Origin: Thermoproteota archaeon
GTDB taxonomy: Archaea; Korarchaeota; Korarchaeia; Korarchaeales; Korarchaeaceae
Assembly: GCA_027491915.1 (NCBI GenBank)
Contig: JAOZGC010000002.1
Coordinates: 160,001 to 224,000, forward strand
Direction: 5' to 3'
DNA: 64,000 nucleotides
This document shows, piece after piece, positions 12,186 to 52,776 of this stretch. The position numbers and the translations under genes are program-made. Below the pieces are notes generated by a model that was given only the letters and a program-made list of their open reading frames with translations, did not search any database and was not told the DNA's origin. Every line of letters starts with the position of its first letter. Within the stretch, counting starts at the first letter, position 1.

Positions 12186-14652
12186 CCCTCCCCTTCCCCC
12201 GACCGGAGAGCTCGTCGAAGTCCAGGCCTAGGACGTCCAGTACCTGCTCGAAGGTGCTCCTCATGATCTCCAGGTACTTCCTAACGTCGACGTCCTCCGG
12301 CCTCGCCAGGGCGAGCGGCTTCACCCCATCCTTTCCGGTCGTCTTGACGTATTCTATGACCTCCCCGGGGAGGGGCTCTATTCCGGTAGCCTCTTTGATC
12401 ATGCGGGCAGCCTTTACGTGCTGGGGGGTCGTCTTGACGTACGATGAGATCGGCTTGGTCATAACGACCCTGAAGGAGACCTCCCCCATGTCGAACCTCC
12501 TGTCCTCCAACCTGCTCACGTACCTGGATATCACGTTCTTTATGTTCTCGATCGCCCTATCCAGATCATCCGGCGTGTGGACGGCCCTGAGCTCATCTAT
12601 GACCTCCGAGAAGGCCCTCCTCACTATCTCTGGGACGTTCCTCTTCTTTCCCAGGAGACCCTTTATGTCCACGGTGCCGTCGTCTCTGACCCCCAGGTAG
12701 TTCTTCTTCAGGCTTGAGAGTATGACGTACCTGTAGTGCTTGTCCAACTCTATGTCTATGCCGAGCCTGTCCTCTACGATCTCCTCGAACGATTCCAACT
12801 CGTCCAGATCGGCCCCCTCTATGAACAGGGAATCGGTGTCCCCGTAGATCACCCTGAGCCCCATCTCCCTCGCTATCTCGAGGGAGGTCTTTATCGCCTT
12901 CCTCCCGAGCGCCGCTATCATCTCGGCCACCGGGGGAGAGTATAGCGGGAACTTCTCATATCCGAAGACCCCGTAGGAGGCGTTCAACATGACCTTCAGG
13001 CTGCTCTGAATCACGCCGTACCAGGAGCGCTCCTCCTCAGGGATGCTCTCGTCCCTGGAAAGTCTCTTGTACCTGTAGACCCTCAGATCCCGGAGACCCC
13101 CTATCAGTCTGTGGACCAGTCCCACCTCCCTCCTCTTGCATATCCAGTGGGGGAGGGTCTCCACCGGCCTGTTCGACCTGCACTCGTCGTGGGGACAGTT
13201 TATCGTCTCAAAGGAGACCCTCCACCTCTCTATTATTGAGGGATACAGGCTGGCGAAGTCCATCACCGCGACGTCGAAGTGGGCGCCCGGGACCGGCTCC
13301 AGGACGATCGCCCCGGCGTACTTCTTACCCCTTATCGCGGCGCTGCTGTAGGTCTCGGCCCCCCTCACCCTCAGCACATCCTCCGGATTCGGTATGAGCC
13401 ATCTTCTGGACCTGTACTCCGCGTATATCATGCTCTGAATCCACTGGGATATCCCCTCCCTTGACACGTCCTCCAGCGGGAGCCTGGATATCCTGGCGAA
13501 CACGAACAGCAGCTTGAGAAGCTTGTCCCCTATGGCGGTTCCCAGCCTGTAGGTGAGCTCCGCATCCTTCAGACAATATCTCGCCAACAGCCCTGCGTCT
13601 AGGGATCCCAGGTCCTCGGACGGGAGTTCCACCTTCCCCTCCCCGAGCATGGCCTTGGATATCTCGTCCAGAGTGTGGCCAAGGTACCTGTTCCCGAACA
13701 CGTAAACCTGAACCGATCTGTTGCCGTAGAGCTTGTACAGGTCTATGTGCACCCCGGTCCTCAGGAGGGATCTGTTCCTCTCGACTATAACTGGATGCCT
13801 CTTGATGCCCAAGAACTCGGCCCTGGCGGCCAGGTATGGCAGATCAAATCCGTCTCCGTTGAACGTGAACACCACCGGGAGGCTGGAGATCCTGTCGAAG
13901 ACCTCCCTCAGGAGGTCAACCTCAGTTTCGTGGACCGCAACCCTGGCCCCATCGACCTCCTCGGGCTGACTTCCCCTCTTGAGGACGTGGACCTCCCTCA
14001 AGCCGTCTCCAACGATGGCCACCGCTATGACCGGCCTCTTGGGTTCCCTGGGATCTGGGACGTGTCCAACCGGCGTTGAAACCTCTATGTCCACGGCACC
14101 CCTGCTCATCTCGGGTACGGGGCTCTCCAGAAGCCTGGCATATCTCTCTATTATCCCTGCGGTCGTCTCGTCGCTCTTCGGCACGCCCGATAGGTCGGGA
14201 GTTTCTAGGTCGACCGGCCTGATGCGCCCGCTCCCCTCCACCTCGTAGGGGAGACCCGGAACAATCCCGGTGTCGTATATGTAAGACATGTAGTACCTTA
14301 TCCGCGCCTCCCACGCCCCCCAGCCCGATTTCCTCAGCCTCTCCCTCAGAGAGACTGGAGAGCCGCCTATGGCCAGGGGATCGGCCGCCTCCACCTTGAG
14401 AAGCCTCACCCTCCTGAGTGTCAGCGGATCCCACATCTCCACCTGACTCGCGCCCTCGATTCTGGGGGCCAGGGCGGGTCCGGCCGCCTCCCTGATCTCG
14501 CCCTCCGGGGCGTCGGTAAGCAGGTAAGGTTTGTGCCCTGTCATGTCTTTTATATTAAATATCTCTCTCTTTTCCGGATCATAAAAACGCATAACGACTC
14601 TATTTTCATTCTTATCATAATAAACAGATAGCAGAAAGGCCCTTCTCCTCAT
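12163..14652 (-). CDS. polB1: Family B DNA polymerase, PolB1 type
   Basis: N-terminal FYDP..GHKPY; ExoI DIE, ExoII FNGDGFDLPY, ExoIII YCLKD; DFASLYPS, LKVMLNASYG, YGDTDS; PIP-like C-terminus SLEGYL. Confidence 0.95.
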   Translation of the reverse strand: MRRRAFLLSVYYDKNENRVVMRFYDPEKREIFNIKDMTGHKPYLLTDAPEGEIREAAGPALAPRIEGASQVEMWDPLTLRRVRLLKVEAADPLAIGGSPVSLRERLRKSGWGAWEARIRYYMSYIYDTGIVPGLPYEVEGSGRIRPVDLETPDLSGVPKSDETTAGIIERYARLLESPVPEMSRGAVDIEVSTPVGHVPDPREPKRPVIAVAIVGDGLREVHVLKRGSQPEEVDGARVAVHETEVDLLREVFDRISSLPVVFTFNGDGFDLPYLAARAEFLGIKRHPVIVERNRSLLRTGVHIDLYKLYGNRSVQVYVFGNRYLGHTLDEISKAMLGEGKVELPSEDLGSLDAGLLARYCLKDAELTYRLGTAIGDKLLKLLFVFARISRLPLEDVSREGISQWIQSMIYAEYRSRRWLIPNPEDVLRVRGAETYSSAAIRGKKYAGAIVLEPVPGAHFDVAVMDFASLYPSIIERWRVSFETINCPHDECRSNRPVETLPHWICKRREVGLVHRLIGGLRDLRVYRYKRLSRDESIPEEERSWYGVIQSSLKVMLNASYGVFGYEKFPLYSPPVAEMIAALGRKAIKTSLEIAREMGLRVIYGDTDSLFIEGADLDELESFEEIVEDRLGIDIELDKHYRYVILSSLKKNYLGVRDDGTVDIKGLLGKKRNVPEIVRRAFSEVIDELRAVHTPDDLDRAIENIKNVISRYVSRLEDRRFDMGEVSFRVVMTKPISSYVKTTPQHVKAARMIKEATGIEPLPGEVIEYVKTTGKDGVKPLALARPEDVDVRKYLEIMRSTFEQVLDVLGLDFDELSGRGKGRVSLEGYL

Positions 14653-14746
14653 GTCGGGTTCCCCGGGCGGCGTAGTGTATAACCCCTCCCCGACCCGACA
14701 GCCCCCGCCGTGAAGCCTTTTTTAACCCCCTATCCCAGACGCCGCG

Positions 14747-15775
14747 GTGCTGCCCTTGAGAGAGACCAAAAATATAATCACATATTTGATGTTATTTATG
14801 ACAATAATTACTCTCTACCCCTTAGCAAAAGCATTTTCACAGCCTTTGATAGGTTCGTTCGCTCCGTTCAGGGACGAGTCCTACATCCAGATAACCTTCG
14901 ACGAGAGCATGGTGGGCAGGGTGACCGCCAACATCCTGAGGCCCCTGAGCTACGCCGACGTGGCCAACTTCAACCAACTGGGGATTCCCATCCTCCCAGG
15001 TATGATGTACAACGCCACCATAGAGTTGAAGAGACAGGGAACGAAGCTCAAGGGGAACTACACTCTGGCAATGGCTCCCGTGCCGGCGCCCAACAACGAC
15101 CTGGACCTGGCCATGAAACTCTATGCACAGCTCCAATCCTCCGGCTCCCCGTACCTGATCTTCAATCAGCTGATGTCCGCCCTCTACGGTCAGGACGTCC
15201 TGTCCATACCAAGGCCCTCGGTAGCGCTCACCCAGACGAACGTGAGCATATCTGGCCCGGCCGTGCGCAAGCACTATGTTTTGGTTAAGGGATTGCTACT
15301 GACGGCCCCCGTTTCTTGCAACACTCCATTTATTGACACCCTTAAAGTGAGATATTATCTCGCAATAATGCCAGAAATACAACCTAATTGGACCGGCTAC
15401 ATAAAGTACCGCGTCAACATGAAGACCCTGGAGATGGGAGGTCCCTACCCCGTCTCCGAGGAGTCGGGGAGGATGTCCCTGAACCTGGATCCGATCTTGA
15501 CCCTTCTCCCGAAGGGGGCAACCTCTACAATATACTTGGCCTTCTCCGATCCCTCCCTCAGGATTGTCGGCGGGCAGCCACGTCCTAAACTGACGATATG
15601 GAACTCCGGGGTCTGGCAGTATGATCCGGTTCTGTCCCAGCCCACCCTAGTGGTGGAGGCCGTCAGGTGGGGGGGAGAACCCGGAGGCCTTGATTGGCTC
15701 ACCGCGGCCGCGGTCGTCCCGCCAGTGGCGGCCGGCGCCTACCTGGCGTACACCCTGAGGAGGAGGGCATCCTAG
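14747..15775 (+). CDS. Hypothetical exported/membrane-anchored protein
   Basis: 342-aa ORF; N-terminal hydrophobic signal-like segment; C-terminal TM followed by RRRAS. Confidence 0.7.
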   Translation: MLPLRETKNIITYLMLFMTIITLYPLAKAFSQPLIGSFAPFRDESYIQITFDESMVGRVTANILRPLSYADVANFNQLGIPILPGMMYNATIELKRQGTKLKGNYTLAMAPVPAPNNDLDLAMKLYAQLQSSGSPYLIFNQLMSALYGQDVLSIPRPSVALTQTNVSISGPAVRKHYVLVKGLLLTAPVSCNTPFIDTLKVRYYLAIMPEIQPNWTGYIKYRVNMKTLEMGGPYPVSEESGRMSLNLDPILTLLPKGATSTIYLAFSDPSLRIVGGQPRPKLTIWNSGVWQYDPVLSQPTLVVEAVRWGGEPGGLDWLTAAAVVPPVAAGAYLAYTLRRRAS

Positions 15776-17590: not shown

Positions 17591-17934
17591 GGGTGGAGAC
17601 GAGGAGATCCTTCCCCGGAGTTAGCCCGCCGGAGCGCGCGTGCGGCGACAGGAACTGCCCGTGGCACGGAACAATCTCGGTGAGGGGGAAGACAATGAGG
17701 GGAAAAGTTATATCTACTAAAATGCAACGAACTGTTGTTATTGAAATCAAATATGAACATTATATACCAAAATATAAAAGATATGAGAGAAGAAGATCAA
17801 AAATCCATGCCCACCTTCCACCGTGCTTGGACGTCGCCGAGGGGGACGAGGTCGTCATAGCGGAGACCAGGAGGCTTGCCAAAACCGTGAGCTTCGTGGT
17901 GCTCGGTAAACCTCATGAGGCGAAACAGGGATAA
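17587..17934 (+). CDS. rps17: 30S ribosomal protein uS17
   Basis: CGDRNCPWHG, KYKRYERRRSKIHAHLPPC, ETRRLAKT. Confidence 0.96.
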   Translation: MRVETRRSFPGVSPPERACGDRNCPWHGTISVRGKTMRGKVISTKMQRTVVIEIKYEHYIPKYKRYERRRSKIHAHLPPCLDVAEGDEVVIAETRRLAKTVSFVVLGKPHEAKQG

Positions 17935-17964: not shown

Positions 17965-19074
17965 TCACCCTTGGACTTTTCTTTTCCACCCGTACCTATC
18001 TTGATCATAGAACGGCGTCTCGACCACCTCGACGGATATCTTTCCCCTGGGCCCGAGAGACGAGAGCCTGGTTCCCGGCCGAGAACTTTCTATCTGGACG
18101 TACCCCATTCCTATCCCAAGGCCAATCGTAGGGCTGAATGCGCCGCTAGTTACGATACCAACCTCCTCCCCATCCCCTGTCAATAGCCTGTCTCCCGGCC
18201 TGGGCGCCCTCCTCCCGGTCGCCCTGAGGCCCACCCTCTTCTTCTCTCTTCCCCTGTCCCTCTTCTTCTCCAGGGCCTCCTTTCCTATGAAGTCTTCTTT
18301 CTCCATATCCACCGCGAACTCCAGGTCGGCCTCGAAGGGATCGGTCTCCTCGTTCATATCCTCCCCGTACAGGGGGAGACCGGCCTCCAGTCTTAGGATG
18401 TCCCTGGCCTCCAACCCACACGGCTGGGCCCCCATCGCGACCGCCTCCCGAAAGAACGTCGCGCCCTCATCTTGATCGAAGAAGATAATCTCGTAGCCGT
18501 CTTCTCCCGTGTATCCGGTTCTGCTGACCACGAGACCCCTGTCCTCAAGGTGGGCGACCCTAAACTTTCGCCCTGGAAGGTTCTCTCCCAAGATCTCTCT
18601 CACGGTCTGGACCGCTTTTGGCCCCTGAACGGCGACCATGGCCGTCTCCTCCGTTTCATCCTCCACGCTTAACTCCGATCCTCCCCAGGACTCCCTTACC
18701 TCATCTATCCACGAGATTATCTTCTCCCTCGAGGCCGCGTTCACCACCAGTATATATTTTGTATCTTCTAAAACCATAGCTATATCATCATCTTTTATAC
18801 CACCAAGGTTATTCAAAAATAAAGTGTACCTAGTTCTCCCTGGCCTCCCCGGGATGGAGTTAGACGTCGCGTAATTCAGGAAGGATCTCGCCCCGCCGCC
18901 TGAGATGACGATCCTGCCCATGTGCGACACGTCAAAGATGCCGACCGCCTCCCTGACGGCTATAGTCTCCCTCAACGCGCTGGAGTACCTTAGGGGCATG
19001 AACCACCCTCCAAATTCTGTGAACCTGGCGCCGAGATCCCGGTGAACCTCCTCCAGCGGGGTGCGGAGGGCCAT
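17965..19074 (-). CDS. gcvT: Glycine cleavage system aminomethyltransferase T
   Basis: FGGWFMPLRY, FDVSHMG, QGP, SRTGYTGEDGYE, ARDILRLEAG. Confidence 0.95.
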   Translation of the reverse strand: MALRTPLEEVHRDLGARFTEFGGWFMPLRYSSALRETIAVREAVGIFDVSHMGRIVISGGGARSFLNYATSNSIPGRPGRTRYTLFLNNLGGIKDDDIAMVLEDTKYILVVNAASREKIISWIDEVRESWGGSELSVEDETEETAMVAVQGPKAVQTVREILGENLPGRKFRVAHLEDRGLVVSRTGYTGEDGYEIIFFDQDEGATFFREAVAMGAQPCGLEARDILRLEAGLPLYGEDMNEETDPFEADLEFAVDMEKEDFIGKEALEKKRDRGREKKRVGLRATGRRAPRPGDRLLTGDGEEVGIVTSGAFSPTIGLGIGMGYVQIESSRPGTRLSSLGPRGKISVEVVETPFYDQDRYGWKRKVQG

Positions 19075-20476: not shown

Positions 20477-21520
20477 TTGCCGCTCTTCACTCCCAGGCTA
20501 ACGGCCGACATCAGCAGGTGCGTGAGATGCGGGGCCTGCAACTCCCACTGTCCGGTCTACTCCCTCCACTCTCACGCGGAGACTAAATCTCCAAGATCAT
20601 GGATAAAACTATCTTCCTCAGTAAATAAAAAAGAAATATCCGTCTCTGTAGAGTTTATAGAATTCATGTACGGGTGCACCCAGTGCGCCCTCTGCAGCGG
20701 GGTTTGTCCCGTCGGTTTGGACCCCTCCTACATAATACTCAAAGTTAGAAAGGAGCTCATAGATCAGGGATACGTCCCGCCGATGGCGGTGGCCGCCCTG
20801 CCAGAGGAGGTTCTGGGGGGGGAGGTCTTCCCCACCCCCCTGGAGACGGTCGCCCCGATGGCGGGAGGTAGGCCCACTTACTTGGCCGGATGCTGGGGAG
20901 AATCGACCCCGGAGGTGGACGTTGCAGCCTCTGCCGCGCTGGAGAGACTGCTCGGGAAGATCAGGCTTGGAGATCGCGCTTGCGGCGTCATCCTCAGGTA
21001 CGCCGGTTACTTCGACCAAGAGGAGGAGGTCCTGGAGGTGCTGGTCAGGGAGAATTCGGACGCGCGATTCTTAGTCTCCGCGTGCCCAGAGCAGGTAAGG
21101 GCGATAAGGGAGAGTCATCCGGAGATGGACGTGAGGTTCATCTTCGATCTGCTCGAGGAAATTCCGGTCGGCAGGATCAGGGGGGAGAGATACCTCATCA
21201 TCCCTGACTGCCGAAGCCCGTCGGTTGGTGAGAAGATCGGGGAGATCTTGGCGGCCGCCGGGGCCGAGGCGATGCTGGCCCCGGACGAGTTGTGCTGCTC
21301 GTGCGGGCACCTAGTTACCCGCAGGGCTCAGCCAGACGTGATACGCCGGCTCGCCGTGGGAATTGTGAACGAGGCGACCGCCGTCGGGTCGAGCGCGATA
21401 CTCTTCGTCAATCCGGCTTGCTATGGGATGATCTCGGAGGTTATCAGGTCGGCCAAGGGAATCAAGTTCTCAGGTCGCCTGTCAGAGCCAGCGGAAGAAC
21501 TGCTCCGGCTCTTGAAGTGA
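20477..21520 (+). CDS. Fe-S protein, GlcF/HdrD-like (two 4Fe-4S motifs, eroded CCG domains)
   Basis: CVRCGACNSHCP and CTQCALCSGVCP; remnants ACG, ACP, CCSCG, NPAC. Confidence 0.78.
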   Translation: MPLFTPRLTADISRCVRCGACNSHCPVYSLHSHAETKSPRSWIKLSSSVNKKEISVSVEFIEFMYGCTQCALCSGVCPVGLDPSYIILKVRKELIDQGYVPPMAVAALPEEVLGGEVFPTPLETVAPMAGGRPTYLAGCWGESTPEVDVAASAALERLLGKIRLGDRACGVILRYAGYFDQEEEVLEVLVRENSDARFLVSACPEQVRAIRESHPEMDVRFIFDLLEEIPVGRIRGERYLIIPDCRSPSVGEKIGEILAAAGAEAMLAPDELCCSCGHLVTRRAQPDVIRRLAVGIVNEATAVGSSAILFVNPACYGMISEVIRSAKGIKFSGRLSEPAEELLRLLK

Positions 21521-32426: not shown

Positions 32427-34634
32427 TCAGAGGAAATCCTCCAATCCTCCCCCTCCTCCGCCCTCCTTCCCGACCTCAACCTCCCTGATCGCCCTCAAGG
32501 TTCTGTCCATGACTCCGTCGAACAGCTCCAGGTAGTAGCCGAAGTCCACATCATCAGGACTGACGAACTCCACCGGTCGGGCCCTCTCGTTCACGCTTCC
32601 CCTTCCCTTGACTATCACTATCCTCAGTACCTGGCCCCTGTGTATCTCTATCCCCCTCCCCTTCAGCCACATGCCAACCGCGTATCCCTTGGTCTTCCTC
32701 TGAAAATCCTCCAGCCTCTTGCCCACGGTCTCCACAATCACCAGGTCTTCCATATCCACCTCCCTCCTCTCCAACCTCTTCCTGGCGGAGGCGACAGTCC
32801 TCACTATCTCCTCCATGGGGGCCCCGCGCAGGGCCGCCTCGACGACCCTCCTCTGAGCCTTCTTCACGACGGCGGGATAATCCCTCCTAACGAACTCGAA
32901 GCCTCTGGCCTCCAGCCTCCCACCGACCAAGTGGGCGTACTTCTTCTTGGATAGGTAGAGGGCCGCGTCCGCCACGTATTGGAACTCCAGCGAGAGGGGG
33001 TACTCTGAATCTATCTCCTCGGCCAACCTCAGGTAATCCCCCTCGGAACCGCCGACGAGCTGTATTCCATCGGTGTCCACGTAGATGGGTTTCAAACCCA
33101 TCTCCTCCGCCCTCTTCATGACCTCCTTTATCAGCCTCCTCCCCACGGCGGCGGTCAGCTCGGCAGCCTCCCTACTCTTGAAAAGGGCCGACCCCCATCC
33201 CATGTAACCGTACAGGGCATTCGTCAAGACCTTGATGGCCTTTTCCACCGCCCTGAGTTTCTTAACCTCGCCCGGCCCCGCCGCCGACGACTCCTCTTTT
33301 ATGGCCGCCCTCTCCCTAATGAGCTCCTCGGCAATCCCCGATATTATCCCCCTGGGTTCCGTGCACACCTCCTTGATCGTCCCCTCTCCCTCGACCCTTC
33401 TGGTGGGACACTCCCCGCCGGGCGGGGAGACCGTCTCCGGGCTTATGTTGTAGCCGGCGATTATCGAAGGGTACATGCTCCTGAAATCCAGGTATCCGAC
33501 CTCCCTGTAGAGTCCCGGCCTGTCCAACCACACGAATCCACCCTTGAAATACCCGGCCGACCTTCTCCTCTCCGGGGGGGCCATTCCCTCCCTGAGGGCC
33601 CTCCTCAGCACGAGGGATTCGACGAGTTCACCGACGGGAGACCTGATAGTCTCGTGTATCGGTCTCAGACACCTCCTGGAGAGTTCCTCTTGGTGCGGCA
33701 GTAACCTCTTGGCCATTTCTCTTATGGTATCAACCTTATCCTCCATATATCTCAGAATTCTATCCCTCTCTCCCCTCCACATGTTTGGTATCTTATACTT
33801 CGGTATGGGATTTGGTCTCTCCACTCCAAGGGCGTCGGCCAACTCGTGCCAGGACCTGGTCGGAAGCTGCGGGAAATCTCTCCACGCCAGGGCGAATAGG
33901 TCCAGATCGGCCCTCCCGGGGATCACCCTCTCTACCAGTATGATCCCCCTGAAGAACCTGCCAGTCTCTCTAGGTTCCCCCCCGCCTCTCCCTCCGTCGA
34001 GGTTCACCCCCCCCCTCTCGGCCCTAGCCTGGATGTGGGCCAGCTCGTCCGCGTCCTGGCCGTACCCGACTATCACGTCTGGATCCTCTCTCCTGACGGT
34101 CTTCAAGAATTCTCCTATGATCTCGGAGTCGTCTCCCTCAGGCCCCTCCAGGGAGACGGGCTCCTCATCCCCGACGGCATAGGCCAGGGCTATTATTGGG
34201 CTCTCCCCGACCACCGGATACCCGAGCTTGCTGTACACCACCCCTGTAAAGTACATGATCTTGAGATCCTCGAGTCCGCCGATGCCCACCGGTTCCAGAT
34301 CCTCGGACAGGAGGCTGAAGGGCTCCAACCCCCTCTCCATCAGGAATTGGTGCCACGTCGGGATGTCCCCCGCCCTGACCCCCTTAACCTCCCTCGAAAT
34401 CCTCCTGCGATCCTCCTCCCTCAACCTGACCTTCCTGAACCTCTTCTCCCTGAGGGGATCCCTCAGGACGACCTCTTCCTCCGATAGAATCTTGTCCCTA
34501 AACCTCGCGGGTACCTCAGCCCCCTCGGGTACGAGGACGTAGGGGAGGTATTCGACCTCCTCCCTCCCGCCCCCTCCGACCCAGAGTCTGACCCCGCCGG
34601 GGATCTCCTCCATGTGGTAGAATGTTCCTCTCAA
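32427..34634 (-). CDS. Second family B DNA polymerase (PolB3-like) with degenerate 3'-5' exonuclease
   Basis: DFRSMYPSII, IKVLTNALYGYMG, YVDTDG, KKKY, RGFEFVRRD; exonuclease acidic residues missing; C-terminal GLEDFL. Confidence 0.9.
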   Translation of the reverse strand: MRGTFYHMEEIPGGVRLWVGGGGREEVEYLPYVLVPEGAEVPARFRDKILSEEEVVLRDPLREKRFRKVRLREEDRRRISREVKGVRAGDIPTWHQFLMERGLEPFSLLSEDLEPVGIGGLEDLKIMYFTGVVYSKLGYPVVGESPIIALAYAVGDEEPVSLEGPEGDDSEIIGEFLKTVRREDPDVIVGYGQDADELAHIQARAERGGVNLDGGRGGGEPRETGRFFRGIILVERVIPGRADLDLFALAWRDFPQLPTRSWHELADALGVERPNPIPKYKIPNMWRGERDRILRYMEDKVDTIREMAKRLLPHQEELSRRCLRPIHETIRSPVGELVESLVLRRALREGMAPPERRRSAGYFKGGFVWLDRPGLYREVGYLDFRSMYPSIIAGYNISPETVSPPGGECPTRRVEGEGTIKEVCTEPRGIISGIAEELIRERAAIKEESSAAGPGEVKKLRAVEKAIKVLTNALYGYMGWGSALFKSREAAELTAAVGRRLIKEVMKRAEEMGLKPIYVDTDGIQLVGGSEGDYLRLAEEIDSEYPLSLEFQYVADAALYLSKKKYAHLVGGRLEARGFEFVRRDYPAVVKKAQRRVVEAALRGAPMEEIVRTVASARKRLERREVDMEDLVIVETVGKRLEDFQRKTKGYAVGMWLKGRGIEIHRGQVLRIVIVKGRGSVNERARPVEFVSPDDVDFGYYLELFDGVMDRTLRAIREVEVGKEGGGGGGLEDFL

Positions 34635-35821: not shown

Positions 35822-37043
35822 TGGACGAAACGTACCTGGAGATCCTGTCCAATCCCTCCCTCAACCTCCCCTCGTTCATGACCAGGGGGGCGAAGGACAG
35901 CCTTACCCACCCCTCCATCCCGAAGTCGACCCCGGGGGCCAGGGCCACCTGCCACCCCCTCAGGAGCTCCTCCGTGAACTCTTTTGATGTTTTTCCCGTT
36001 TCTCCTATATTGAAGAATACATAAAAACCGCCATCGGGTCTCAACGGCCTCAATTTTTCTATGCGTGCTATCCCGTCGTACGCCCTGGCGGCCGTCCTCC
36101 CGTACAGGGATGGGGTCTCGCTCAGCATGTACCTCTTTATTCTTGATCCGGAGGTGTTCTCCATCATCTTGACGAATCCCCTCTGGATTAGCCCCGACGG
36201 AGACAGAGTCCTTGCCTGCTGCACGGTCTCCACAGCCCTGAGGAGATACGGGTCTCCGTAAAGGTACGCGGCCCTCCACCCAGGTATCCTGAACTCTTTC
36301 GACAGTGAGGCCAACCACAACTCATTCTCCCTTCTCTTCCTCGAATAATACGCCGGAATGTCTCCGTAATGGAACATCCTGTAGGCGACATCTATCAGCA
36401 CCCACAGCCCCCTGTCCTCGGCTATGTCCACCACTCCAGAGAGGGTCTCATCGTCGTAGACCTGGCCGTCCGGGTTCCCGGGCGTGGTTATGACTATCAT
36501 CCTCGTATCTGGCGTGATTAATTCGTCCAGATCCCCCAAATCAGGATTAAATTTTCCCCCTTTAATGGTCCTCCACCTCCTGATCCTCGCACCCATGCCG
36601 CTCTCCACGAGGATCTGTCTCTCGTAGTTCAGGTAGAAGGGGGTGGCCATGATGACCTCCGAGCCCCTGTCTAGCGTGGCCAAGAACAATCCGCCGGATA
36701 TGTCCGTGCTCCCCAGACCCGAGAGCAGCTCTTCCGTCTCAATCTCCCTACCGAAGACGATCGACTCGTATTTCGCGATCGCCTCCAGGAACTCCGGGTC
36801 TCCCCTGGTTGGGGGGTACCGAGCGGAGTTCACCAGTTCCCCATCGTCTTCCAGGACAGCAGAGATTCCCTCCCTCAGGAACTCCGGGGGGGGATCCTGA
36901 GGCCAACCTCCGCCCATGTAGATGAGCGGCCTCGGGTACCTCTCCGGGTGTCTCCTGTAGTCGGCGACCAGGTTCATTATCTCCCTTATCGAGCTGGGGT
37001 TCTCGACGGCGAACTCGGCCGTCAAAGAGATCCGGCCGCGCAT
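35811..37043 (-). CDS. PLP-dependent aminotransferase class I/II
   Basis: GWP, PFYLNY, PGNPDG, DVAY, SLSKEFRIPGWR, GGFY, PGVDFG, RLSF. Confidence 0.92.
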   Translation of the reverse strand: MRGRISLTAEFAVENPSSIREIMNLVADYRRHPERYPRPLIYMGGGWPQDPPPEFLREGISAVLEDDGELVNSARYPPTRGDPEFLEAIAKYESIVFGREIETEELLSGLGSTDISGGLFLATLDRGSEVIMATPFYLNYERQILVESGMGARIRRWRTIKGGKFNPDLGDLDELITPDTRMIVITTPGNPDGQVYDDETLSGVVDIAEDRGLWVLIDVAYRMFHYGDIPAYYSRKRRENELWLASLSKEFRIPGWRAAYLYGDPYLLRAVETVQQARTLSPSGLIQRGFVKMMENTSGSRIKRYMLSETPSLYGRTAARAYDGIARIEKLRPLRPDGGFYVFFNIGETGKTSKEFTEELLRGWQVALAPGVDFGMEGWVRLSFAPLVMNEGRLREGLDRISRYVSSIRD

Positions 37044-37310: not shown

Positions 37311-40253
37311 TTGGCCCGTATCAAGAGCAGCCGGGAGAAGTTTGACCCAAAAAAATACGAGGAGGAAGTACTCCGATTCTGGGAAGAGGGCAAAATCTAC
37401 GAGAAGCTGAGGGAGAGACTCAGGGGAGGCCCCAAGTTCTTCTTCCTTGACGGTCCTCCCTACCCCTCTGCCGAGGAGCCCCACCCCGGAACCCTATGGA
37501 ACAAGATCCTCAAGGACTCCGTCATAAGATTCCGCAGGTCCCTGGGTTTCGACGTGCTCGACAGGCCCGGGTGGGACACCCACGGCCTGCCCATCGAGGT
37601 GATGACGGAGAGAAGGTTGGGCCTGAGGTCAAAAAGAGAAATAGAAGAGAGAGGAATAGATAAGTTTATTAATGATTGTAGGTCTTTAGCCCTTCATAAC
37701 ATAGAAAAAATGGGAGATTGGTTTAGAGAGTTCGGAGTATCTATGAGGTGGGACGACGCCTACTTGACCCTCAAGCCGGAGTACATAGACAGCGCGTGGT
37801 GGGGGATCAAGAGGATCTGGGAGCAGGGGCGGCTGAAGCGGGGCCTCAAGGTGGTCCACTGGTGTCCGAGATGCGAGACCGTGCTCTCGGACTACGAGGT
37901 GAACGAGTACAGGAACCTTAAGGACCCTTCCATATACGTGAGATTCCAGCTGGAGGGGAGGCCCGGCGAGTACATCCTCGTGTGGACGACCACGCCCTGG
38001 ACCATACCGGCCAACGTGGCCGTCATGGTGCACCCCAACTTCACCTACGTCAGGGTGAGGGTGGACGACTCCACCTACCTGCTGGCTGAGCAGAGGCTGG
38101 AGGCGGTTGCCAGAGACGTCGGATGGCAGGATTACGAGGTGGTGGAGAGGCTGCCCGGCTCCGCCCTCGAGGGCCTACGTTACGTTCACCCCCTGAGGGA
38201 CCTGATACCCGCCCTGAGGTCTCTCGAGAGGGCGCACTTCGTCATACTCTCCGAAGAGTTCGTCACGCTTGATGAGGGAACGGGATGCGTTCACTCGGCT
38301 CCCGGCCACGGCAGGGAGGACTTCGAGGCCGCCCACGAGAGATACGGCCTGCCCGTGATATCCCCCGTCGACGACAGGGGAAGTTACACGGACGAGGCCG
38401 GGCCCCTAGCAGGGTTGCAGGTCAGGGAGGCCAACGACAGGGTCATTGACATGCTCAGGGAGAGGGGGGCCCTGGTGGCCTCCGGCTGGATAGTGCACAA
38501 GTATCCGGTCTGTTGGAGGTGCGGCACCCCCCTCATCATAAGGGCGACCGAGCAGTGGTTCATCAGGCTCGTCGACCTGAAGGAGAAGCTGATCTCCGAG
38601 GTCAAGGGGGTTAGGTGGGTTCCGGAGTGGGCTGGAGCCCGGAGATTCGTCAACTGGCTGGAGGACCTGGAGGACTGGGTTATCTCCCGCCAGAGATACT
38701 GGGGAACCCCCCTGCCCATATGGGTGTGCGAGAATTGCGGAGAGACCGTGGCCGTCGGGGGACTCAGGGAGTTGGCAGACATGGCAGGCGAGGTTCCGGA
38801 GGATCCCCACAGGCCCTGGGTGGATGGGGTAACCCTGAGGTGCCCGAAATGCGGCGGGGAGATGAGGAGGGTGGAGGACGTGCTCGACGTGTGGTACGAC
38901 TCGGGCGCCTCCTTCTTCGCCTCCCTGGGATACCCCTCCAGGAGAGACGAGTTCGACAGGTGGAGTCCGGTCGACTTCATAGTGGAGGGTCACGATCAGA
39001 TAAGGGGGTGGTTCTTCTCCCTCCTCAGGCTGGGCGTCCTGCTGTTCGGGAAGGCGCCCTACCGGTCAGTCCTGATGCATGGCTTCATGCTGGACGAGAG
39101 GGGGCAGGAGATGCACAAGTCCAAGGGGAACTACGAGCCCCCTAGCAGGATAGTTGAGAGGGCCGGCAGGGACGCCTTCCGCATATTCGTCCTGTCCAAG
39201 GTCCAGTGGAACGACATAAGATTCGTCTGGAGGGAGCTAGAGAACGTAGTCAGGAAGATGGGAATCATCTGGAACGTCTACAGCTTTGCCGGCCTCTACC
39301 TGTCCGACCTAGATCTGCCGGACTCGCCCGAGGGGGAGCTGGACTACTCGGACAGGTGGCTGCTCTCCAGATTCGGGAGCCTCAGGAGGAGGTTCCACTC
39401 GGCCATGGAATCTCTCTCGGTCCATGAGGCGGTCAACTCCCTGCTCAACTTCTACCTGGAAGATCTCAGCCATGGCTACCTGACCTTCGTGAGGAGAGAT
39501 CTGCGCCGCGGGGAAGAGGCCGTCAGGAGGAGGAGGGGGTCCGTCCTCCTCTACGTGCTGCTGAATTCACTCCCCATGCTGGCCGTGATCGCCCCCATAA
39601 TGGCAGAGAAGATCTACCTCTCCTTCTTCTCTTCGGAAGACATGCCAAAGAGCGTGAACTTCCTCGACTTCCCGGACGAGTCGGTGGAATCTTGGATAGA
39701 TGAGGGGCTGGAGGCAGACATGGCCACCGCCATGGAGGTCGCGAGGGCCGCGGCGGCCGCGAGGGCCTCCGCCGGGATAAAGAGGAGGCAGCCGCTGAGG
39801 GAGCTGGTAGTGGTCAGCGCGGATCCGAGGGTTCGATCCTCCCTCGAGAGGTTCTCCGACATACTGACGCTCGAGGCTAACGTGCGATCCGTCAGGATGG
39901 CCGAGGGGCCGCCCGAGGGAGATGGGTGGATCTCGTCCGGGTTCGACCGGGGGGAGGTCTACCTGTACTCCGTGCTGGGCCCGGAGGAGGTGAGGGAGGG
40001 GCTCGCCCGGGAAGTCATAAGGAGGATACAGCAGACCAGGAAAGAGATGGGTCTGACCGTGGGGGTGGAGAAAGTCGAGGTCAGGATAGAGACCGACGAC
40101 GAGACCTGGGACCTCCTGAGCGGCTCGCTCGATCGGGTGGCTGAGGAGACAGATTCCGCGGTCGTGTACCGAGGAGGGCCTGATGAGGGATTCTCCGGTC
40201 GGGTTTGGGACGTTGATGGGAGGTCGATCGGAATTTGGCTGAGGAGATTGTGA
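37311..40253 (+). CDS. ileS: Isoleucyl-tRNA synthetase (type 2)
   Basis: DGPPY, HPGT (HIGH), GWDTHGLPIE, WTTTPWT, GTGCVHSAPGHG, SRQRYWG, EGHDQIRGWF, EMHKS. Confidence 0.96.
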   Translation: MARIKSSREKFDPKKYEEEVLRFWEEGKIYEKLRERLRGGPKFFFLDGPPYPSAEEPHPGTLWNKILKDSVIRFRRSLGFDVLDRPGWDTHGLPIEVMTERRLGLRSKREIEERGIDKFINDCRSLALHNIEKMGDWFREFGVSMRWDDAYLTLKPEYIDSAWWGIKRIWEQGRLKRGLKVVHWCPRCETVLSDYEVNEYRNLKDPSIYVRFQLEGRPGEYILVWTTTPWTIPANVAVMVHPNFTYVRVRVDDSTYLLAEQRLEAVARDVGWQDYEVVERLPGSALEGLRYVHPLRDLIPALRSLERAHFVILSEEFVTLDEGTGCVHSAPGHGREDFEAAHERYGLPVISPVDDRGSYTDEAGPLAGLQVREANDRVIDMLRERGALVASGWIVHKYPVCWRCGTPLIIRATEQWFIRLVDLKEKLISEVKGVRWVPEWAGARRFVNWLEDLEDWVISRQRYWGTPLPIWVCENCGETVAVGGLRELADMAGEVPEDPHRPWVDGVTLRCPKCGGEMRRVEDVLDVWYDSGASFFASLGYPSRRDEFDRWSPVDFIVEGHDQIRGWFFSLLRLGVLLFGKAPYRSVLMHGFMLDERGQEMHKSKGNYEPPSRIVERAGRDAFRIFVLSKVQWNDIRFVWRELENVVRKMGIIWNVYSFAGLYLSDLDLPDSPEGELDYSDRWLLSRFGSLRRRFHSAMESLSVHEAVNSLLNFYLEDLSHGYLTFVRRDLRRGEEAVRRRRGSVLLYVLLNSLPMLAVIAPIMAEKIYLSFFSSEDMPKSVNFLDFPDESVESWIDEGLEADMATAMEVARAAAAARASAGIKRRQPLRELVVVSADPRVRSSLERFSDILTLEANVRSVRMAEGPPEGDGWISSGFDRGEVYLYSVLGPEEVREGLAREVIRRIQQTRKEMGLTVGVEKVEVRIETDDETWDLLSGSLDRVAEETDSAVVYRGGPDEGFSGRVWDVDGRSIGIWLRRL

Positions 40254-46696: not shown

Positions 46697-47029
46697 GTGG
46701 CGTTGACTCTCCGGGTTGCTGTTGCGACCGATGATGGAAATAAGGTAAAGGAAGATGAGTTTCATAGGGCAAAATATTTTGCCATATTCGATTTAACAGG
46801 TAGGAGCCCGACGAGGGTGGAGCTCAGGGTCAACACGAGGAGGGACAGGAAGGAACCCGCCTCCGTGCTCGAGATACTAAGGGACTGCGAGGTCCTGGTG
46901 GCCGGCAGCATAGACGATGAGAGCAGGGAGATCATGGAGTCCCTCGGCGTGATCGCCCACGCGACCAAGCGGGAGTCAGTCGAATCCGCGGTTCTTGAGA
47001 TAGCGGAGGGAATCTCCAAGCTTTCCTGA
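46697..47029 (+). CDS. NifX/NifB-like (COG1433) small protein
   Basis: RVAVATDDG...FHRAKYFAIFD...DCEVLVAGSI; start uncertain. Confidence 0.75.
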   Translation: MALTLRVAVATDDGNKVKEDEFHRAKYFAIFDLTGRSPTRVELRVNTRRDRKEPASVLEILRDCEVLVAGSIDDESREIMESLGVIAHATKRESVESAVLEIAEGISKLS

Positions 47030-50110: not shown

Positions 50111-50127
50111 AGAGAGGGAGAGGTGGC

Positions 50128-51456
50128 TCACGGCCAGATGCCGCGCCACTTCATGGCGCTGACGACCCGGTCTATGGCGAGCCAGAGGGCCGCCGTCCTC
50201 ATGTCAATCTTCTTCTCCTCGTGCAGGCTGTAGACGTCCCTGAAGGCCCTGGTCATCTTTGCCCTGAGCTTGTTCCTGACGGTCTCCAGGTCCCACCACT
50301 CCCTGTACCTGGCCTGAACCCACTCGAAGTAGCTGACGGTGACCCCCCCGGCGTTGGCCAGTATGTCCGGTATCATGAGGACGCCCTTCTCGTGCAGTAT
50401 GTCGTCGGCCTCCGGGGTGGTCGGCCCGTTGGCCGCCTCGGCTATCAGCTTGGCCTTTATCCTGTCGGCGTTGTCCTTCGTTATGACGTTCTCTATGGCC
50501 GCCGGTATGAGGACGTCGACGTCGAGCTCCAGCAGCTTGGCGTTGGCCGCCTTGGCGTCTTTATCCAAATTGGTTGCCCCCGGGAAGTCTCTGACGCTCT
50601 TATCATCGCTCTTCTGCTTGTGAGCCAGCACCGCATCCGGATCCAGTCCGTCGGGATTGTATATGCCTCCCTTGCTGTCGCTGACCGCCACAACCTTCAT
50701 GCCCAACTCGTGCATGAACTTGGCCGCGAAGTACCCGGCGTTCCCGTATCCCTGAACCGCTGCGGTGGCCCTCTTCGGATCTATGTTGAGGACCCTTATG
50801 GCCTCCTCGACGGTGTACTGCAGTCCCCTGGCCGTGGCCTCGTTCCTGCCCTCGCTGCCGCCCACCTCCAGCGGCTTGCCGGTGACCACGCCCGGCTCCG
50901 GATAGCCCACAATCTGGCTGTAGGTGTCCATTATCCAGGCCATCTCCCTGGGTCCGGTGTAGACGTCGGGGGCCGGTATGTCCCTGTTGACTCCTATTAT
51001 GGGGGATATCATGAAGGCGTATCTCCTGGTCAGCCTCTCCAGCTCTCCCTGGCTTAGGGCGTGCGGATCCACCTTTATCCCGCCCTTCGCCCCCCCGTAG
51101 GGTATGTCAACCACGGCGGTCTTCCAGGTCATCCACATAGCCAGGGCCTTCACCTCGTCCCTGTGGACGCCTGGGTGATACCTTATCCCGCCCTTGCACG
51201 GCCCCCTGGCGTCGTTGTGCTGGACCCTCCAACCGAGGAAGACCTCTATGCTGCCGTCGTCCATCCTAACAGGTATCTGGACCTCAAGCACCCTCTTCGG
51301 GGTCGCGAGTATCTTGTGATAGCTTGAATCGAGGTTCATGGCCTCAGCGGCCTTGTCCAGCTGCCTGAGGGCGTTGTACCAGGGATTCACCTCGGGGGGA
51401 GGGGTCGTCCCGAGGACGGCGTACGCCTCCCCTATGGGCACCCTCTTCTCGGTCAT
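50128..51456 (-). CDS. gdhA: Glutamate dehydrogenase
   Basis: RGPCKGGIRY, MTWK, GGAKGG, DIPAPDV, TGKP..GGS.GR, QGYGNAG, EAANGP, PDILANAGGV. Confidence 0.96.
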   Translation of the reverse strand: MTEKRVPIGEAYAVLGTTPPPEVNPWYNALRQLDKAAEAMNLDSSYHKILATPKRVLEVQIPVRMDDGSIEVFLGWRVQHNDARGPCKGGIRYHPGVHRDEVKALAMWMTWKTAVVDIPYGGAKGGIKVDPHALSQGELERLTRRYAFMISPIIGVNRDIPAPDVYTGPREMAWIMDTYSQIVGYPEPGVVTGKPLEVGGSEGRNEATARGLQYTVEEAIRVLNIDPKRATAAVQGYGNAGYFAAKFMHELGMKVVAVSDSKGGIYNPDGLDPDAVLAHKQKSDDKSVRDFPGATNLDKDAKAANAKLLELDVDVLIPAAIENVITKDNADRIKAKLIAEAANGPTTPEADDILHEKGVLMIPDILANAGGVTVSYFEWVQARYREWWDLETVRNKLRAKMTRAFRDVYSLHEEKKIDMRTAALWLAIDRVVSAMKWRGIWP

Positions 51457-51633
51457 TCAGATCACCCCTCTGGGGCGGGTGATCGAGACGGTCGATTCTT
51501 AAAAGTTTTTACATTTAATCATTAGACGATGGAGGGGCGTCCCTCCATCTCTGTATCGTTAGAACTGGCCCTTTTAGATGAAACTACCTGATCTAATATC
51601 AGATCTAATTCTTATAACCTACGAAAATTGGAT

Positions 51634-52776
51634 CTACGGCGAGACGAGGGTCTTCAACCAGGCCAGCGGCAGCCTCCTCTTTGCCCACCTCCAGAACCCG
51701 GAGAAGCTGATCTTTCCTATGGCATAGTCTGTAAATTTTTCTGCTATTGGCCTGTAAACCATCATTATCTCAAAGAATTTTCGGATTCTAGGGAGAACTA
51801 TCTTTGAGACCTTGAGCCTGACGCCGGCCTCCTCCAGGACCGAGGACATCCCATCGACGTAGGACCGGACAGGATCTCCTCCCCCCCGGCGGCGGAGGAG
51901 GGATCTCGCGGCCACCTCCGCGCTCAGGACCGCGTAGTATATGCCCTCCCCCGTGAACGGATCCGCCAGGCCGGCGGCGTCCCCAACCAGCATGACCCTG
52001 TTCCCGGCCACCACGCGGCGGGCCCCGACCGGTATCACCCCTCCCCTGGCCTCCCACCCGTCCGGCTCTCCCAGCCAGCTCAGGTGGGCCCTCAGGGCCC
52101 GGGCCAGGTCCATCCCGGGGTGAGGGATGCCCCCCACCCCGATGTTCAGACCTCCGTCGAACGGGAAGACCCAGCCGTACCCCCCGTCGACGGCGTCCAT
52201 CTTGAACACGAGGTCGTCCCCCGACCTATCCTGGAGCACCACGTCGAGCGCGAGTATGAGCTCGGAGGTCGTCCAACCCGACCTCAGGCCGGCCAACAAC
52301 CCGGTCTTCCCCGCCGCCCCGTCGGCCCCGACCACGTAGTCCGCCTCCAGGATCCCGCCGTCGAACCTCACCTCCCAGCCTCTGGCGATCCGCCTCATCC
52401 CCCTGAGGGAGGTTCCCTCCAACACGTTGGCTCCCCTACTTTCGGCCTCCCTGGCGAGCCACTCGTCGAATTTCGCCCTGTCCGTGACCGCCACGGCGAA
52501 CGGCCTCCTATCCAGCGTTCCCTCCTTACCCCAGCCGATCAGCCTTATCCTCGATATCTTCTTCACCCTCGGTATGCCCTCGACCCGGAAGCCCAGCTCC
52601 CTCAACAGGTTCCAGGTCTTGAGCGTCAGCCCTCCCCCGCACGGCTTTACCCTAGGGATGCCCTCCCTCTCCAGCACCGTCACCCTGAGGCCGGACTCGG
52701 CCAGAAGCGCGGCCGTCACGGATCCGGCCGGACCGGCCCCCACAACCGCCACGTCGCACCTCAAGGCGCCGCACAC
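51634..52776 (-). CDS. Geranylgeranyl reductase family protein
   Basis: VVGAGPAG, KPCGGG, DRAKFD, GADG, YGWVFP, GDAAG..DPFTGEGI. Confidence 0.88.
   Translation of the reverse strand: MCGALRCDVAVVGAGPAGSVTAALLAESGLRVTVLEREGIPRVKPCGGGLTLKTWNLLRELGFRVEGIPRVKKISRIRLIGWGKEGTLDRRPFAVAVTDRAKFDEWLAREAESRGANVLEGTSLRGMRRIARGWEVRFDGGILEADYVVGADGAAGKTGLLAGLRSGWTTSELILALDVVLQDRSGDDLVFKMDAVDGGYGWVFPFDGGLNIGVGGIPHPGMDLARALRAHLSWLGEPDGWEARGGVIPVGARRVVAGNRVMLVGDAAGLADPFTGEGIYYAVLSAEVAARSLLRRRGGGDPVRSYVDGMSSVLEEAGVRLKVSKIVLPRIRKFFEIMMVYRPIAEKFTDYAIGKISFSGFWRWAKRRLPLAWLKTLVSP

Follow-up and report, generated by a model that had tools for sequence, protein, structure and literature searches.

AT-rich islands within the genes of the window

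The window, meaning the whole 64,000-nt stretch of archaeal DNA analysed here, has a mean GC of 0.618 in 80-bp windows (sd 0.068). Judging from its sequence, sharply bounded short AT-rich patches really do appear to be present in this GC-rich archaeal genome, inside genes that are essential and intact (Table 1). The host genes named in a first-pass annotation were supported by Pfam for the two family-B DNA polymerases, ribosomal protein S17, the aminomethyltransferase GcvT and isoleucyl-tRNA synthetase (IleRS), as well as for the class I/II aminotransferase and the FAD-dependent oxidoreductase (the type earlier called GGR). Hosts were also found on both strands, as had been claimed (24 genes on the plus and 18 on the minus strand).

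Earlier hand counts of G and C proved exact at 14541-14630 (24/90), 17701-17800 (25/100), 18751-18830 (21/80) and 37631-37720 (27/90), and all 11 patches previously listed as strong held an 80-bp window within the lowest 0.8% of window GC, seven of them with 80-bp windows at GC ≤0.29. Over their whole intervals, three of these patches lay above the 25–30% GC given for them, namely 15275-15410 (GC 0.41, core 0.33), 33710-33820 (0.41) and 35975-36065 (0.40), and the eight patches listed as weaker reached only percentiles 0.8–3.9 of window 80-bp GC. The island at 2397-2477 and an intergenic stretch at 51495-51636 were absent from the earlier list, which had also missed that the islands at 14543-14637 and 14768-14851 both lie over the opening ~35 codons of their genes, which are divergent. 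The intergenic stretch is likely an ordinary promoter/terminator spacer.

Table 1. AT-rich islands of the window, with their host genes and the GC3 of relatives at the island columns.
Position	Strand	GC	GC3	Feature	Host gene or setting	Relatives
2397..2477	+	0.30	0.19	HMM island, start and first ~22 codons	2413-4398, pyruvate/2-oxoacid:ferredoxin oxidoreductase-like (Pfam TPP_enzyme_C, POR_N, Fer4)	
14543..14637	-	0.27	0.26	Island, codons 6-37	12163-14652, family-B DNA polymerase 1	Orthologous codons end in G/C in 5 relatives
14768..14851	+	0.27	0.32	Island, codons 8-35 (N-terminal hydrophobic segment)	14747-15775, no match in Pfam search	Island lacking
15312..15389	+	0.33	0.27	Second island of this gene, codons 189-215	14747-15775	0.64-0.82
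17703..17804	+	0.225	0.09	Strongest island, codons 39-73	17587-17934, ribosomal protein S17	0.66-0.97 (five relatives measured)
18751..18835	-	0.26	0.17	Island, codons 80-108	17965-19074, aminomethyltransferase GcvT	0.64-0.88
20584..20670	+	0.29	0.24	Island, codons 36-65	20477-21520, Fe-S / CCG-domain protein (Pfam Fer4_8 and CCG)	
33715..33801	-	0.38	0.48	Weak island, codons 278-307 (percentile 0.8 of window GC, under HMM threshold)	32427-34634, second family-B polymerase	
35977..36063	-	0.38	0.38	Moderate island, codons 327-356	35811-37043, class I/II aminotransferase	0.60-0.83
37631..37744	+	0.32	0.24	Island, codons 107-145	37311-40253, isoleucyl-tRNA synthetase	
46716..46796	+	0.36	0.30	Island, codons 18-45	46664-47029, small Nitro_FeMo-Co-domain protein (PF02579)	
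51495..51636	.	0.35		HMM island, intergenic AT-rich stretch, 142 bp	Flanked by two minus-strand genes: 3' of the oxidoreductase gene, 5' of the 50128-51456 start	
51710..51805	-	0.34	0.38	Island, codons 324-356, the last in the region	51634-52776, FAD-dependent, geranylgeranyl-reductase-like oxidoreductase (Pfam FAD_binding_3)	

The islands were compared to a null in which synonymous codons were shuffled inside each gene, preserving protein sequence and codon usage. The genes of the window held seven islands versus 0.08 expected (maximum of 1 over 200 shuffles) and those of contig C4:1-224 kb held 41 versus 4.4 (maximum of 8 over 100 shuffles); 36 genes of the latter stretch contained a 25-codon window with GC3 ≤0.32, versus 0.61 expected from the same shuffle. 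The islands exceed this null about tenfold or more, and the GC3 runs go beyond random codon choice, a match to which had been named beforehand as speaking against the pattern.

Shape, composition and chromosomal setting

The islands are 50–110 bp long, with a median of 24.5 codons, and have the abrupt edges first attributed to them, with GC3 back at 0.73–0.80 within 2–5 codons. GC at codon positions 1 and 2, which were unused in setting the edges, steps from ~0.51 to ~0.32 over ~5 codons, and the overall pattern is a two-state, box-shaped one with edges of at most 5 codons. Boxes of such narrowly limited size would suit replacement of whole tracts as well as drift in place. All three codon positions lose GC (GC3 0.33 and GC12 0.31 inside versus 0.78 and 0.52 outside) and the encoded residues shift toward N, K, I, F and Y, with N, K and I being 2.3–3.5-fold commoner inside islands; the signal thus acts at the DNA level and not on codon choice. 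Outside the islands, GC3 is equal in island-bearing genes and in the other genes of the region (0.787 versus 0.779, p 0.65).

Beyond composition, the islands share no motif. The top 6–8-mers occurred in no more islands than shuffled islands, TATA/BRE-like motifs were not enriched beyond base composition, and searches for repeats and for RNA structure in the islands found none. The islands are randomly spaced (CV 0.96) and show no favoured distance to gene starts or ends. Eight of the 42 islands in the region described below are centred within the first 120 nt of a gene, versus 4.5 expected (p 0.07). An AT-rich or rare-codon start region (first ~30 codons) was rejected as a general description, as it fits only these 8/42, and within the window only 2397-2477, 14543-14637 and 14768-14851 have such a location. 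Of the pentamers in islands, 16.8% are A/T-only, versus 0.96% in the window.

The islands are strongly confined, with 42 of the 48 true islands of the genome falling in C4:1-212,000, a stretch of 203 genes, versus six in the 804 remaining genes, leaving four fifths of the genome almost without islands. This stretch is the lowest-GC end of a chromosome-wide GC3 gradient, which is gradual there and without a step, and it includes an Orc1/Cdc6 gene (C4:30.6-31.7 kb) with G-string inverted repeats upstream. Spacers are GC-rich as well (0.60 in the island region, 0.69–0.71 far away). In the rest of C4, the genome's own promoter islands are 32–77 bp long, have a GC of 0.12–0.34 and lie just upstream of start codons. 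The organism is probably thermophilic; a search of this genome for reverse gyrase gave nothing above the cut-off.

Comparison with relatives and candidate origins

Two GC-matched relatives keep the gene order of this genome across 132 genes, and none of 30 islands was found at the same position in relatives with this gene order. The GC3 of the relatives is normal in the island columns (0.868 versus 0.867 outside in one, 0.773 versus 0.798 in the other) and below 0.5 in 0/30 island segments, and with the same threshold their syntenic stretches held 1 island in 148.5 kb and 5 in 220 kb, versus 52 in 220 kb for this genome. The proposal of a second code, or an undescribed system, overlaid on coding sequence was therefore not upheld, given this absence in relatives, the restriction to one 212-kb region, the random spacing and the lack of a common motif; the islands are not a conserved code. 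Being confined to one stretch and absent from relatives, they give the impression of a recent, local peculiarity of the DNA instead of a hidden code that has been conserved.

The proteins are affected as well. Reading frames are intact, as had been observed, but the view that conserved residues are kept held only in part, with identity to relatives being lower inside islands (0.51–0.53 versus 0.60–0.61 outside); in the S17 island, 20–26 of 35 residues are the same as in eight relatives. Open frames and an identity of this level argue that the island sequences are selection-filtered and not products of damage or base-calling error. Residue differences from the relatives amount to 0.47 inside islands and 0.37 outside, the extra change having occurred in this lineage only, and agreement between the two relatives is as good inside as outside (0.879 versus 0.868). 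At positions 1 and 2, GC-to-AT transitions relative to the relatives are raised inside islands (0.234 versus 0.116) and so are transversions (0.143 versus 0.090), with composition-neutral changes the same (0.1525 versus 0.1518). The island segments are AT-richer at positions 1 and 2 in the relatives too (-0.04, 23/30 segments).

A localized GC-to-AT process, the other initial proposal, fits these data better than a second code; it is confined neither to one strand nor to transitions. Strand-coordinated deaminase clusters of the kataegis type were rejected, as per-island A3/(A3+T3) is not overdispersed (chi-square 41.1 on 41 df), and a transition-only change of this type was rejected in view of the raised transversions. 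The two repair families tested do not explain a lineage-specific change, UDG being present and NucS not being found in this genome or in any of the eight same-family relatives searched.

That the islands are rare-codon clusters slowing translation locally, for co-translational folding or 5' initiation efficiency, seems highly improbable. The islands do gather A/T-ending codons, which this genome uses rarely, into strong clusters, those compared with Pfam ranges fall within domains (e.g. S17, GcvT, IleRS and TBP), and the number centred near gene starts points the same way. However, codon rarity at the island positions is not kept in relatives, and this missing positional conservation, seen in the alignments, already weakens the translational reading; furthermore, the protein sequence changes too, and confinement to one region has no translational rationale.

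Box shape and in-frame homology would also suit short mosaic tracts, acquired by short-patch recombination from orthologs of an unsampled AT-rich sister lineage. Short conversion tracts of similar size have reportedly been observed in Sulfolobus. The composition-neutral differences are not raised inside the islands, so that any donor would stand at the same distance from the relatives as the host, and the rps17 island resembles low-GC members of the family (67–88% over 26–116 nt). Those DNA matches, however, cover residues that are identical anyway, for which AT-rich codons leave few choices. No donor was found in 42 other genomes of the phylum, where the best non-self match of the rps17 island was 71% over 116 nt, nor in a set of 5.8 billion proteins, and the best identity of the IleRS island among 119 homologues was 62%; neither these two islands nor the neutral differences revealed a donor matching the tract better than its flanks. 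The DNA identity of donor and recipient would probably be too low for homologous exchange, and one would not expect import to favour those segments in which the relatives are AT-richer, or to end at 212 kb. We regard mosaic import as doubtful.

An assembly or consensus chimera, in which patches of a co-occurring AT-rich relative were stitched into the metagenome-assembled genome, appears similarly improbable. The assembly is a lone one, with no same-genus genome and no second assembly in the collections searched and an IleRS cluster of one member on one contig, and the islands are concentrated in one part of one contig. Judging from the edge sequences, stitching would nevertheless require ~60 entries and ~60 exits, all in frame at homologous codons, and joins would have to form without common long words between 25%-GC and 65%-GC sequence. 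Gene order with relatives is unbroken across the region, the GC3 gradient is stepless and CheckM-type contamination is 0. A chimera would also leave the preference for AT-richer protein segments unexplained, and the AT-rich sister it requires is itself unsampled. Should the islands be chimeric, they would warn that a metagenome-assembled genome of high quality can carry a subtle type of error.

Chromatin, related systems and significance

The genome encodes two histones (PF00808, 68 and 63 bits), and archaeal histones are described in PMC3691661 as excluding A/T-rich oligomers, as had been stated at first pass. At the sequence level the islands thus have what is expected of histone-free DNA, namely encoded histones and dense A/T-only pentamers. 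The islands could be lineage-specific selected DNA elements lying over coding sequence, with AT-richness itself being the signal, an explanation we find unlikely; candidates would be spacers free of histones, sites for unwinding or loading in an origin-proximal chromosome domain, and intragenic sense or antisense promoters. The sharp edges and narrow size, a composition like that of the genome's own promoter islands, positions where AT-rich coding costs least, and clustering around the Orc1/Cdc6 gene with its upstream inverted repeats are all consistent with selection, as is the marking of transcription starts by nucleosome-depleted regions reported for Haloferax volcanii in PMC3510453. On the other hand, relatives with the same gene order also have a histone gene and have kept none of the islands; as described above, nothing beyond composition serves as a motif, spacing and distance to gene ends are random, and most of the genome is nearly island-free. 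Sense-strand oligo-T, which could stop archaeal transcription, is not avoided either (13 runs of at least T5 versus 8.9 expected).

The explanation we favour, with a probability of roughly 0.35, is that the islands are pieces of the organism's own genes that drifted in place, escaping a GC-favouring force, possibly as open or histone-free DNA. A force at the DNA level would keep the whole genome GC-rich, spacers included, and would be weakest in the 212-kb region around the Orc1/Cdc6 gene, inside which sharp-edged stretches of 50–110 bp would escape it. After the split from the nearest sampled relatives, these stretches would have drifted to ~25% GC under the ordinary GC-to-AT mutation spectrum and protein selection, bringing third positions to ~0.23 GC, with K, N, I, F and Y taking the place of tolerant residues. 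Each patch may mark stably open or histone-free DNA, and an open state starting on an already AT-richer segment would reinforce itself. To our knowledge, no force has been demonstrated to leave 75-bp boxes with sharp bounds untouched over long evolutionary times. It is conceivable, if rather unlikely, that the origin domain splits into GC-rich wrapped DNA and self-reinforcing open AT-rich boxes of 50–110 bp, which might serve as dispersed unwinding or loading sites; in this equally speculative two-state reading the chromosome would undergo a compositional 'phase separation', with boxes forming even in essential genes and pulling the protein sequence along.

Several known systems resemble the islands in part. 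Rare-codon clusters inside coding sequences were reportedly described by Clarke and Clark in 2008. Like them, the islands are runs of ~15–35 rare (A/T-ending) codons beyond chance, inside domains of housekeeping genes; unlike them, the islands alter amino acids and are confined to one region. Conserved rare-codon clusters are mostly located within domains (Chaney et al. 2017, PMC5438181), and in contrast to the clusters of that work, the positions of the islands are not conserved in homologues. Membership in this class was rejected: clustering exceeds the null, but positional conservation and an untouched protein were not found. Codon usage can also be under local non-translational selection, through promoters, terminators or other intragenic signals (Callens et al. 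2021, PMC8410138). As with the signals outlined there, a DNA-level property locally overrides the usual codon choice in the islands, which differ in consisting of composition without a motif, a link to gene ends or conservation. The islands share a density of A/T-only oligomers and a histone-encoding host with the histone-excluding DNA of PMC3691661, and their size corresponds to one to two archaeal nucleosome footprints of 60 bp; however, the archaeal nucleosome-depleted regions presented in PMC3691661 and PMC3510453 lie at transcript starts and ends, whereas the islands are random inside genes. Finally, Hildebrand et al. 2010 (PMC2936529) and Lassalle et al. 2015 (PMC4450053) deal with a universal GC-to-AT mutation bias that selection or biased gene conversion opposes. 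The island substitutions follow the usual spectrum and the rest of the genome is GC-rich, in agreement with this bias, but where these two studies address it they treat whole genomes or genes, and the islands would be an escape from the GC-favouring force over 75 bp with sharp limits.

Provided that the islands exist in the cell, a local DNA state would override codon preference and partly protein sequence in essential genes, and would do so in discrete boxes within only one chromosome domain. This would bear on what keeps prokaryotic genomes GC-rich despite a universal AT-ward mutation bias, and on whether archaeal chromatin shapes substitution patterns, as eukaryotic nucleosomes are reported to do. 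It would likewise bear on the extent to which translation accounts for the 'rare-codon cluster' signal of genomes.

AT-rich islands within intact genes

The AT-rich patches that the first-pass annotation had pointed out inside intact genes of this stretch, 50–110 bp long in the present analysis, were confirmed and are statistically strong, the observation being based on a single assembly. The G+C counts made by hand were exact on recount; all 11 patches named as strong contained an 80-bp window within the lowest 0.8% of the GC distribution of the window, and the eight weaker ones were found at percentiles 0.8–3.9. Third-position GC (GC3) was 0.09–0.48 inside the patches vs 0.57–0.85 in the host genes, with GC at codon positions 1 and 2 lowered as well. 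The islands do not correspond to the GC3 runs of a random-codon null, since shuffling of synonymous codons within genes gave far lower expectations than the observed numbers, both for the 52 genes of the window (7 islands observed, 0.08 expected) and for the 219 genes in the first 224 kb of the source contig C4 (41 observed, 4.4 expected). The gene names assigned earlier (two family-B polymerases, S17, GcvT, an aminotransferase, IleRS and a FAD-dependent oxidoreductase) agree with Pfam, and no tRNA genes were found across the 64-kb window.

The islands have the shape of a box with abrupt edges, as originally described: GC3 is approximately 0.23–0.28 inside and reaches 0.73–0.80 by 2–5 codons outside, and GC at positions 1 and 2, which was not used in setting the edges, steps from ~0.51 to ~0.32 across roughly five codons. 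Their median length is 24.5 codons (10th–90th percentiles 17–35). GC3 is not lowered around them, with values of 0.787 for island-bearing genes outside their islands and 0.779 for other genes of the region, and A/T-ending codons of the region still cluster weakly at short range once the islands are masked. They are found in genes on both strands (24 and 18 host genes), are randomly spaced (CV 0.96) and show no departure from uniform placement within genes, with a mild 5' lean. At the divergent polB1/14747 gene pair, the AT-rich DNA begins inside both coding regions and not in the spacer between them.

The base composition of the coding strand in islands is A 0.39, T 0.30, G 0.18 and C 0.13, compared to 0.21, 0.18, 0.34 and 0.26 in the coding DNA of the region, and none of the islands is biased to one strand (chi-square 41.1 on 41 df). 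Asn, Lys, Ile, Phe and Tyr are enriched 1.6–3.5-fold among the encoded residues, while Ala, Gly, Pro and Arg are depleted. Beyond composition, no shared motif was found, and oligo-T runs on the sense strand are not avoided. Folding of the mRNA of 11 islands gave weak energies and z-scores between -2.58 and +0.97 (below -2 in two of the 11), with no consistent RNA structure, and an Rfam search returned nothing but a 5S rRNA gene and no family within islands. Repeats or a mobile element were likewise rejected as a source, as 55 intragenic islands compared by BLAST to the genome matched only themselves (55/55) and had no second copy. Coordinates of individual features are collected in the table.

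Coordinates of island-bearing genes and associated features. C1 and C4 are contigs of the source genome, L numbers are sub-stretches with their own numbering, and G013 and G005 are GC-rich relatives.
Feature	Location	Sub-stretch	Remarks
G-string inverted and direct repeats (AGAGGGGG / CCCCCTCT type)	C4:29821-30511	L026:9821-9842, 10382-10403, 10470-10511	Outside the window; directly upstream of the Orc1/Cdc6 gene
AT island	C4:29846-29936		Between the G-string repeat arms
Orc1/Cdc6 gene, one of two	C4:30564-31748		Within the island region
MCM gene	C4:51667-55116	L027:11667-15116	1149 codons; Pfam intein-splicing match over residues 389-793; hosts two AT islands
TATA-binding protein gene	C4:70984-71577	L028:10984-11577	Longest island (278 bp, GC 0.40, codons 17-109), part of a 3-kb cluster of six islands
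Actin-family (PF00022) gene, presumably crenactin-like cytoskeletal	C4:106745-108022	L030:6745-8022	Carries an AT island
Divergent spacer, polB1/14747 gene	Window 14653-14746		GC-rich; just two compact TATA-like boxes
5S rRNA gene, lone	Window 37118-37239 (-)		Rfam 85.8 bits; between the aminotransferase and ileS genes
Last island of the region	Window 51710-51805		Also the last named in the first-pass annotation
Histone-fold gene (PF00808)	C1:117108-117296	L057	68 bits; 67%-identical orthologues in G013 and G005
Histone-fold gene (PF00808)	C4:287546-287731	L058	63 bits
Hel308-type helicase orthologue	G013:C10:19209-21377	L034	One in-frame TGA within the match

Distribution along the genome and a candidate replication origin

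The source genome comprises 1.117 Mb in four contigs (per-contig GC 64–66%, completeness 91%, contamination 0), and the window corresponds to C4:160001-224000. With a threshold of 80 bp at ≤0.36 GC it holds 70 islands, 58 of them on C4 and 52 of these in its first 220 kb. A two-state HMM placed 79 islands on C4, of which 64 (counted from the list) lie in C4:1-212 kb and are mainly intragenic, with lengths of 41–278 bp (median 81 over the whole genome); those past 212 kb, 15 in number, are short, all but one situated in spacers or across gene starts, and resemble ordinary promoters. In a third-position scan, where a true island was defined as at least 15 codons with positions 1 and 2 AT-shifted as well, C4:1-212 kb yielded 42 true islands in 203 genes, vs six in the other 804 genes. 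A genome-wide phenomenon masked by the absolute threshold was thus rejected: a relative GC3 scan gives dips everywhere, yet only those six qualify outside C4:1-212 kb. Of the 137 dips outside, 48 show elevated GC at positions 1 and 2 and are attributed to mis-called starts or frames.

The GC content of C4 rises gradually, from ~0.59–0.61 (GC3 ~0.74–0.80) in the first 220 kb to 0.70–0.72 (GC3 0.92–0.93) near 600–687 kb. A chimeric junction at 212 kb was rejected, as the GC3 change is gradual with no step there; the best single step (SSE 333.6, vs 350.0 for a line) is positioned at 235 kb and not at 212 kb. Spacers share the gradient (GC 0.60 to 0.69–0.71), which means that the force maintaining the high GC of the genome acts at the level of DNA and not of codons. 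The gradient is not family-wide, as twenty 10-kb samples from a complete relative (G011) span GC 0.43–0.51 without trend.

One of the two Orc1/Cdc6 genes lies within the island region, with G-string repeats directly upstream, and the second is at the start of contig C3. The former locus is a candidate replication origin, and because of this gene and the inverted repeats upstream of it we take the island region to be probably origin-proximal. The number of islands per 20 kb declines with distance from the Orc1/Cdc6 point over the whole of C4 (Spearman -0.78); the same trend in the first 220 kb only is not significant (-0.50, p 0.12).

Comparison with relatives

The genomes compared (43 in the phylum set) include no other representative of the organism's genus, and its nearest relatives share 52–60% of IleRS residues. 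The closest IleRS among 5.8 billion proteins has 60% identity, the organism's own IleRS cluster having a single member, and the closest GcvT in metagenome contigs and the closest PolB in genome contigs have 41–53% and 63% identity, respectively. Gene order matches that of the GC-rich relatives G013 and G005 across 132 genes of the region, which allowed a codon alignment of 41,920 columns, including 1,180 island columns. The GC3 of the relatives does not drop at island columns (0.868 vs 0.867 outside for one, 0.773 vs 0.798 for the other), is below 0.5 in none of the 30 third-position segments with an orthologue, and inspection of the individual codons of polB1, rps17, gcvT, ileS and the 14747 and aminotransferase genes likewise revealed no islands in the relatives. 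At equal threshold, G013 has one island in 148.5 kb and G005 five in 220 kb. The islands are therefore particular to this lineage, and the initial proposal of a second, DNA-level code is unsupported: conservation in relatives, a motif and regular spacing are all absent.

The frames of the host genes are open and conserved residues are kept, as claimed at first, but identity to the relatives does fall inside islands (0.53 and 0.51, vs 0.61 and 0.60 outside). Between the two relatives themselves, agreement is equal in both column classes (0.879 in islands, 0.868 elsewhere), so constraint is the same. At positions 1 and 2 of columns where the relatives agree, GC-to-AT transitions per column are raised in islands (0.234 vs 0.116 outside), as are GC-to-AT transversions (0.143 vs 0.090), AT-to-GC changes are fewer, and composition-neutral transversions are unchanged (0.1525 vs 0.1518). 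The commonest replacements are Val to Ile, Arg to Lys, Glu to Lys, Leu to Phe and Ser to Asn. The changes represent a general AT-ward pressure and not a deaminase signature, and the localized GC-to-AT process that had also been put forward is the better half of the original interpretation. In island segments, the relatives themselves have lower GC at positions 1 and 2 (-0.04; 23 of 30), so islands tend to fall where AT-richer codons are already required by the protein.

By definition the islands qualify as rare-codon clusters. Conserved rare-codon clusters have positional conservation and purely synonymous change as defining features (PMC5438181), and the islands fail both. They belong with local non-translational pressure on codon usage (PMC8410138), but have no motif. 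A search of open-access full texts found no account of AT boxes, bound to one region and not conserved, within archaeal genes.

Origin of the islands

Random damage or base-calling error was rejected, as frames are open and conserved residues retained. An assembly chimera would place foreign patches in the contig, but this is unlikely: it would require ~120 switches, all in frame and homologous, with no long words in common, and leaves the preference of islands for AT-richer protein segments unexplained. Transition-only deamination fits the fourfold-site and whole-island composition (hand calculation) and was rejected because transversions are raised too in the polarised comparison and strand coordination is absent. 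Loss of a repair gene peculiar to this genome was also discarded, as UDG is present and the mismatch endonuclease NucS/EndoMS (PF01939) was found neither here nor in the eight same-family relatives searched, being present in three of four genomes of neighbouring families. Hyperthermophily was not supported by reverse gyrase, for which only a partial match was obtained (156 bits vs a cut-off of 471.7); a crude proteome estimate, based on a formula of Zeldovich et al. (2007), gives ~88 °C.

Dozens of tolerated changes cannot arise from random rewriting of 75 bp in a single step, and the remaining options are templated import and gradual change in place, the latter under a local regime of long duration and with sharp boundaries. 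A distant donor is ruled out because neutral-type divergence is equal inside and outside islands. The IleRS island has at most 62% identity to any of 119 homologues and is conserved like an average stretch of the protein, and the rps17 island DNA has no better matches in low-GC family members than 67–88% over 26–116 nt, which fall on identical residues, where AT-rich codons leave few choices. Import from an unsampled AT-rich sister lineage is possible, but homologous exchange between DNA so unlike would be hard to picture, and we favour gradual change in place.

Under gradual change, the islands resemble DNA that has reached equilibrium under the usual mutation bias from GC to AT (PMC2936529); the GC-favouring force would be locally absent. 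Archaeal histones are described as excluding A/T-only oligomers (PMC3691661), A/T-only pentamers are 17-fold enriched in islands, and the genome encodes two histone-fold proteins. The box boundaries may thus be linked to histone exclusion, and we propose that island DNA may be open or histone-free; against this, relatives that also have the histone gene have no islands. Alternatively, the islands may be selected elements of an origin-proximal domain, a reading that matches their anatomy about as well as change in place does and is a worse fit to the absence of conservation, motif and spacing. With gradual change in place, a histone-free or easily melted stretch would mutate AT-ward and so stay free, a self-reinforcing state that may start more readily where regional GC is lowest.
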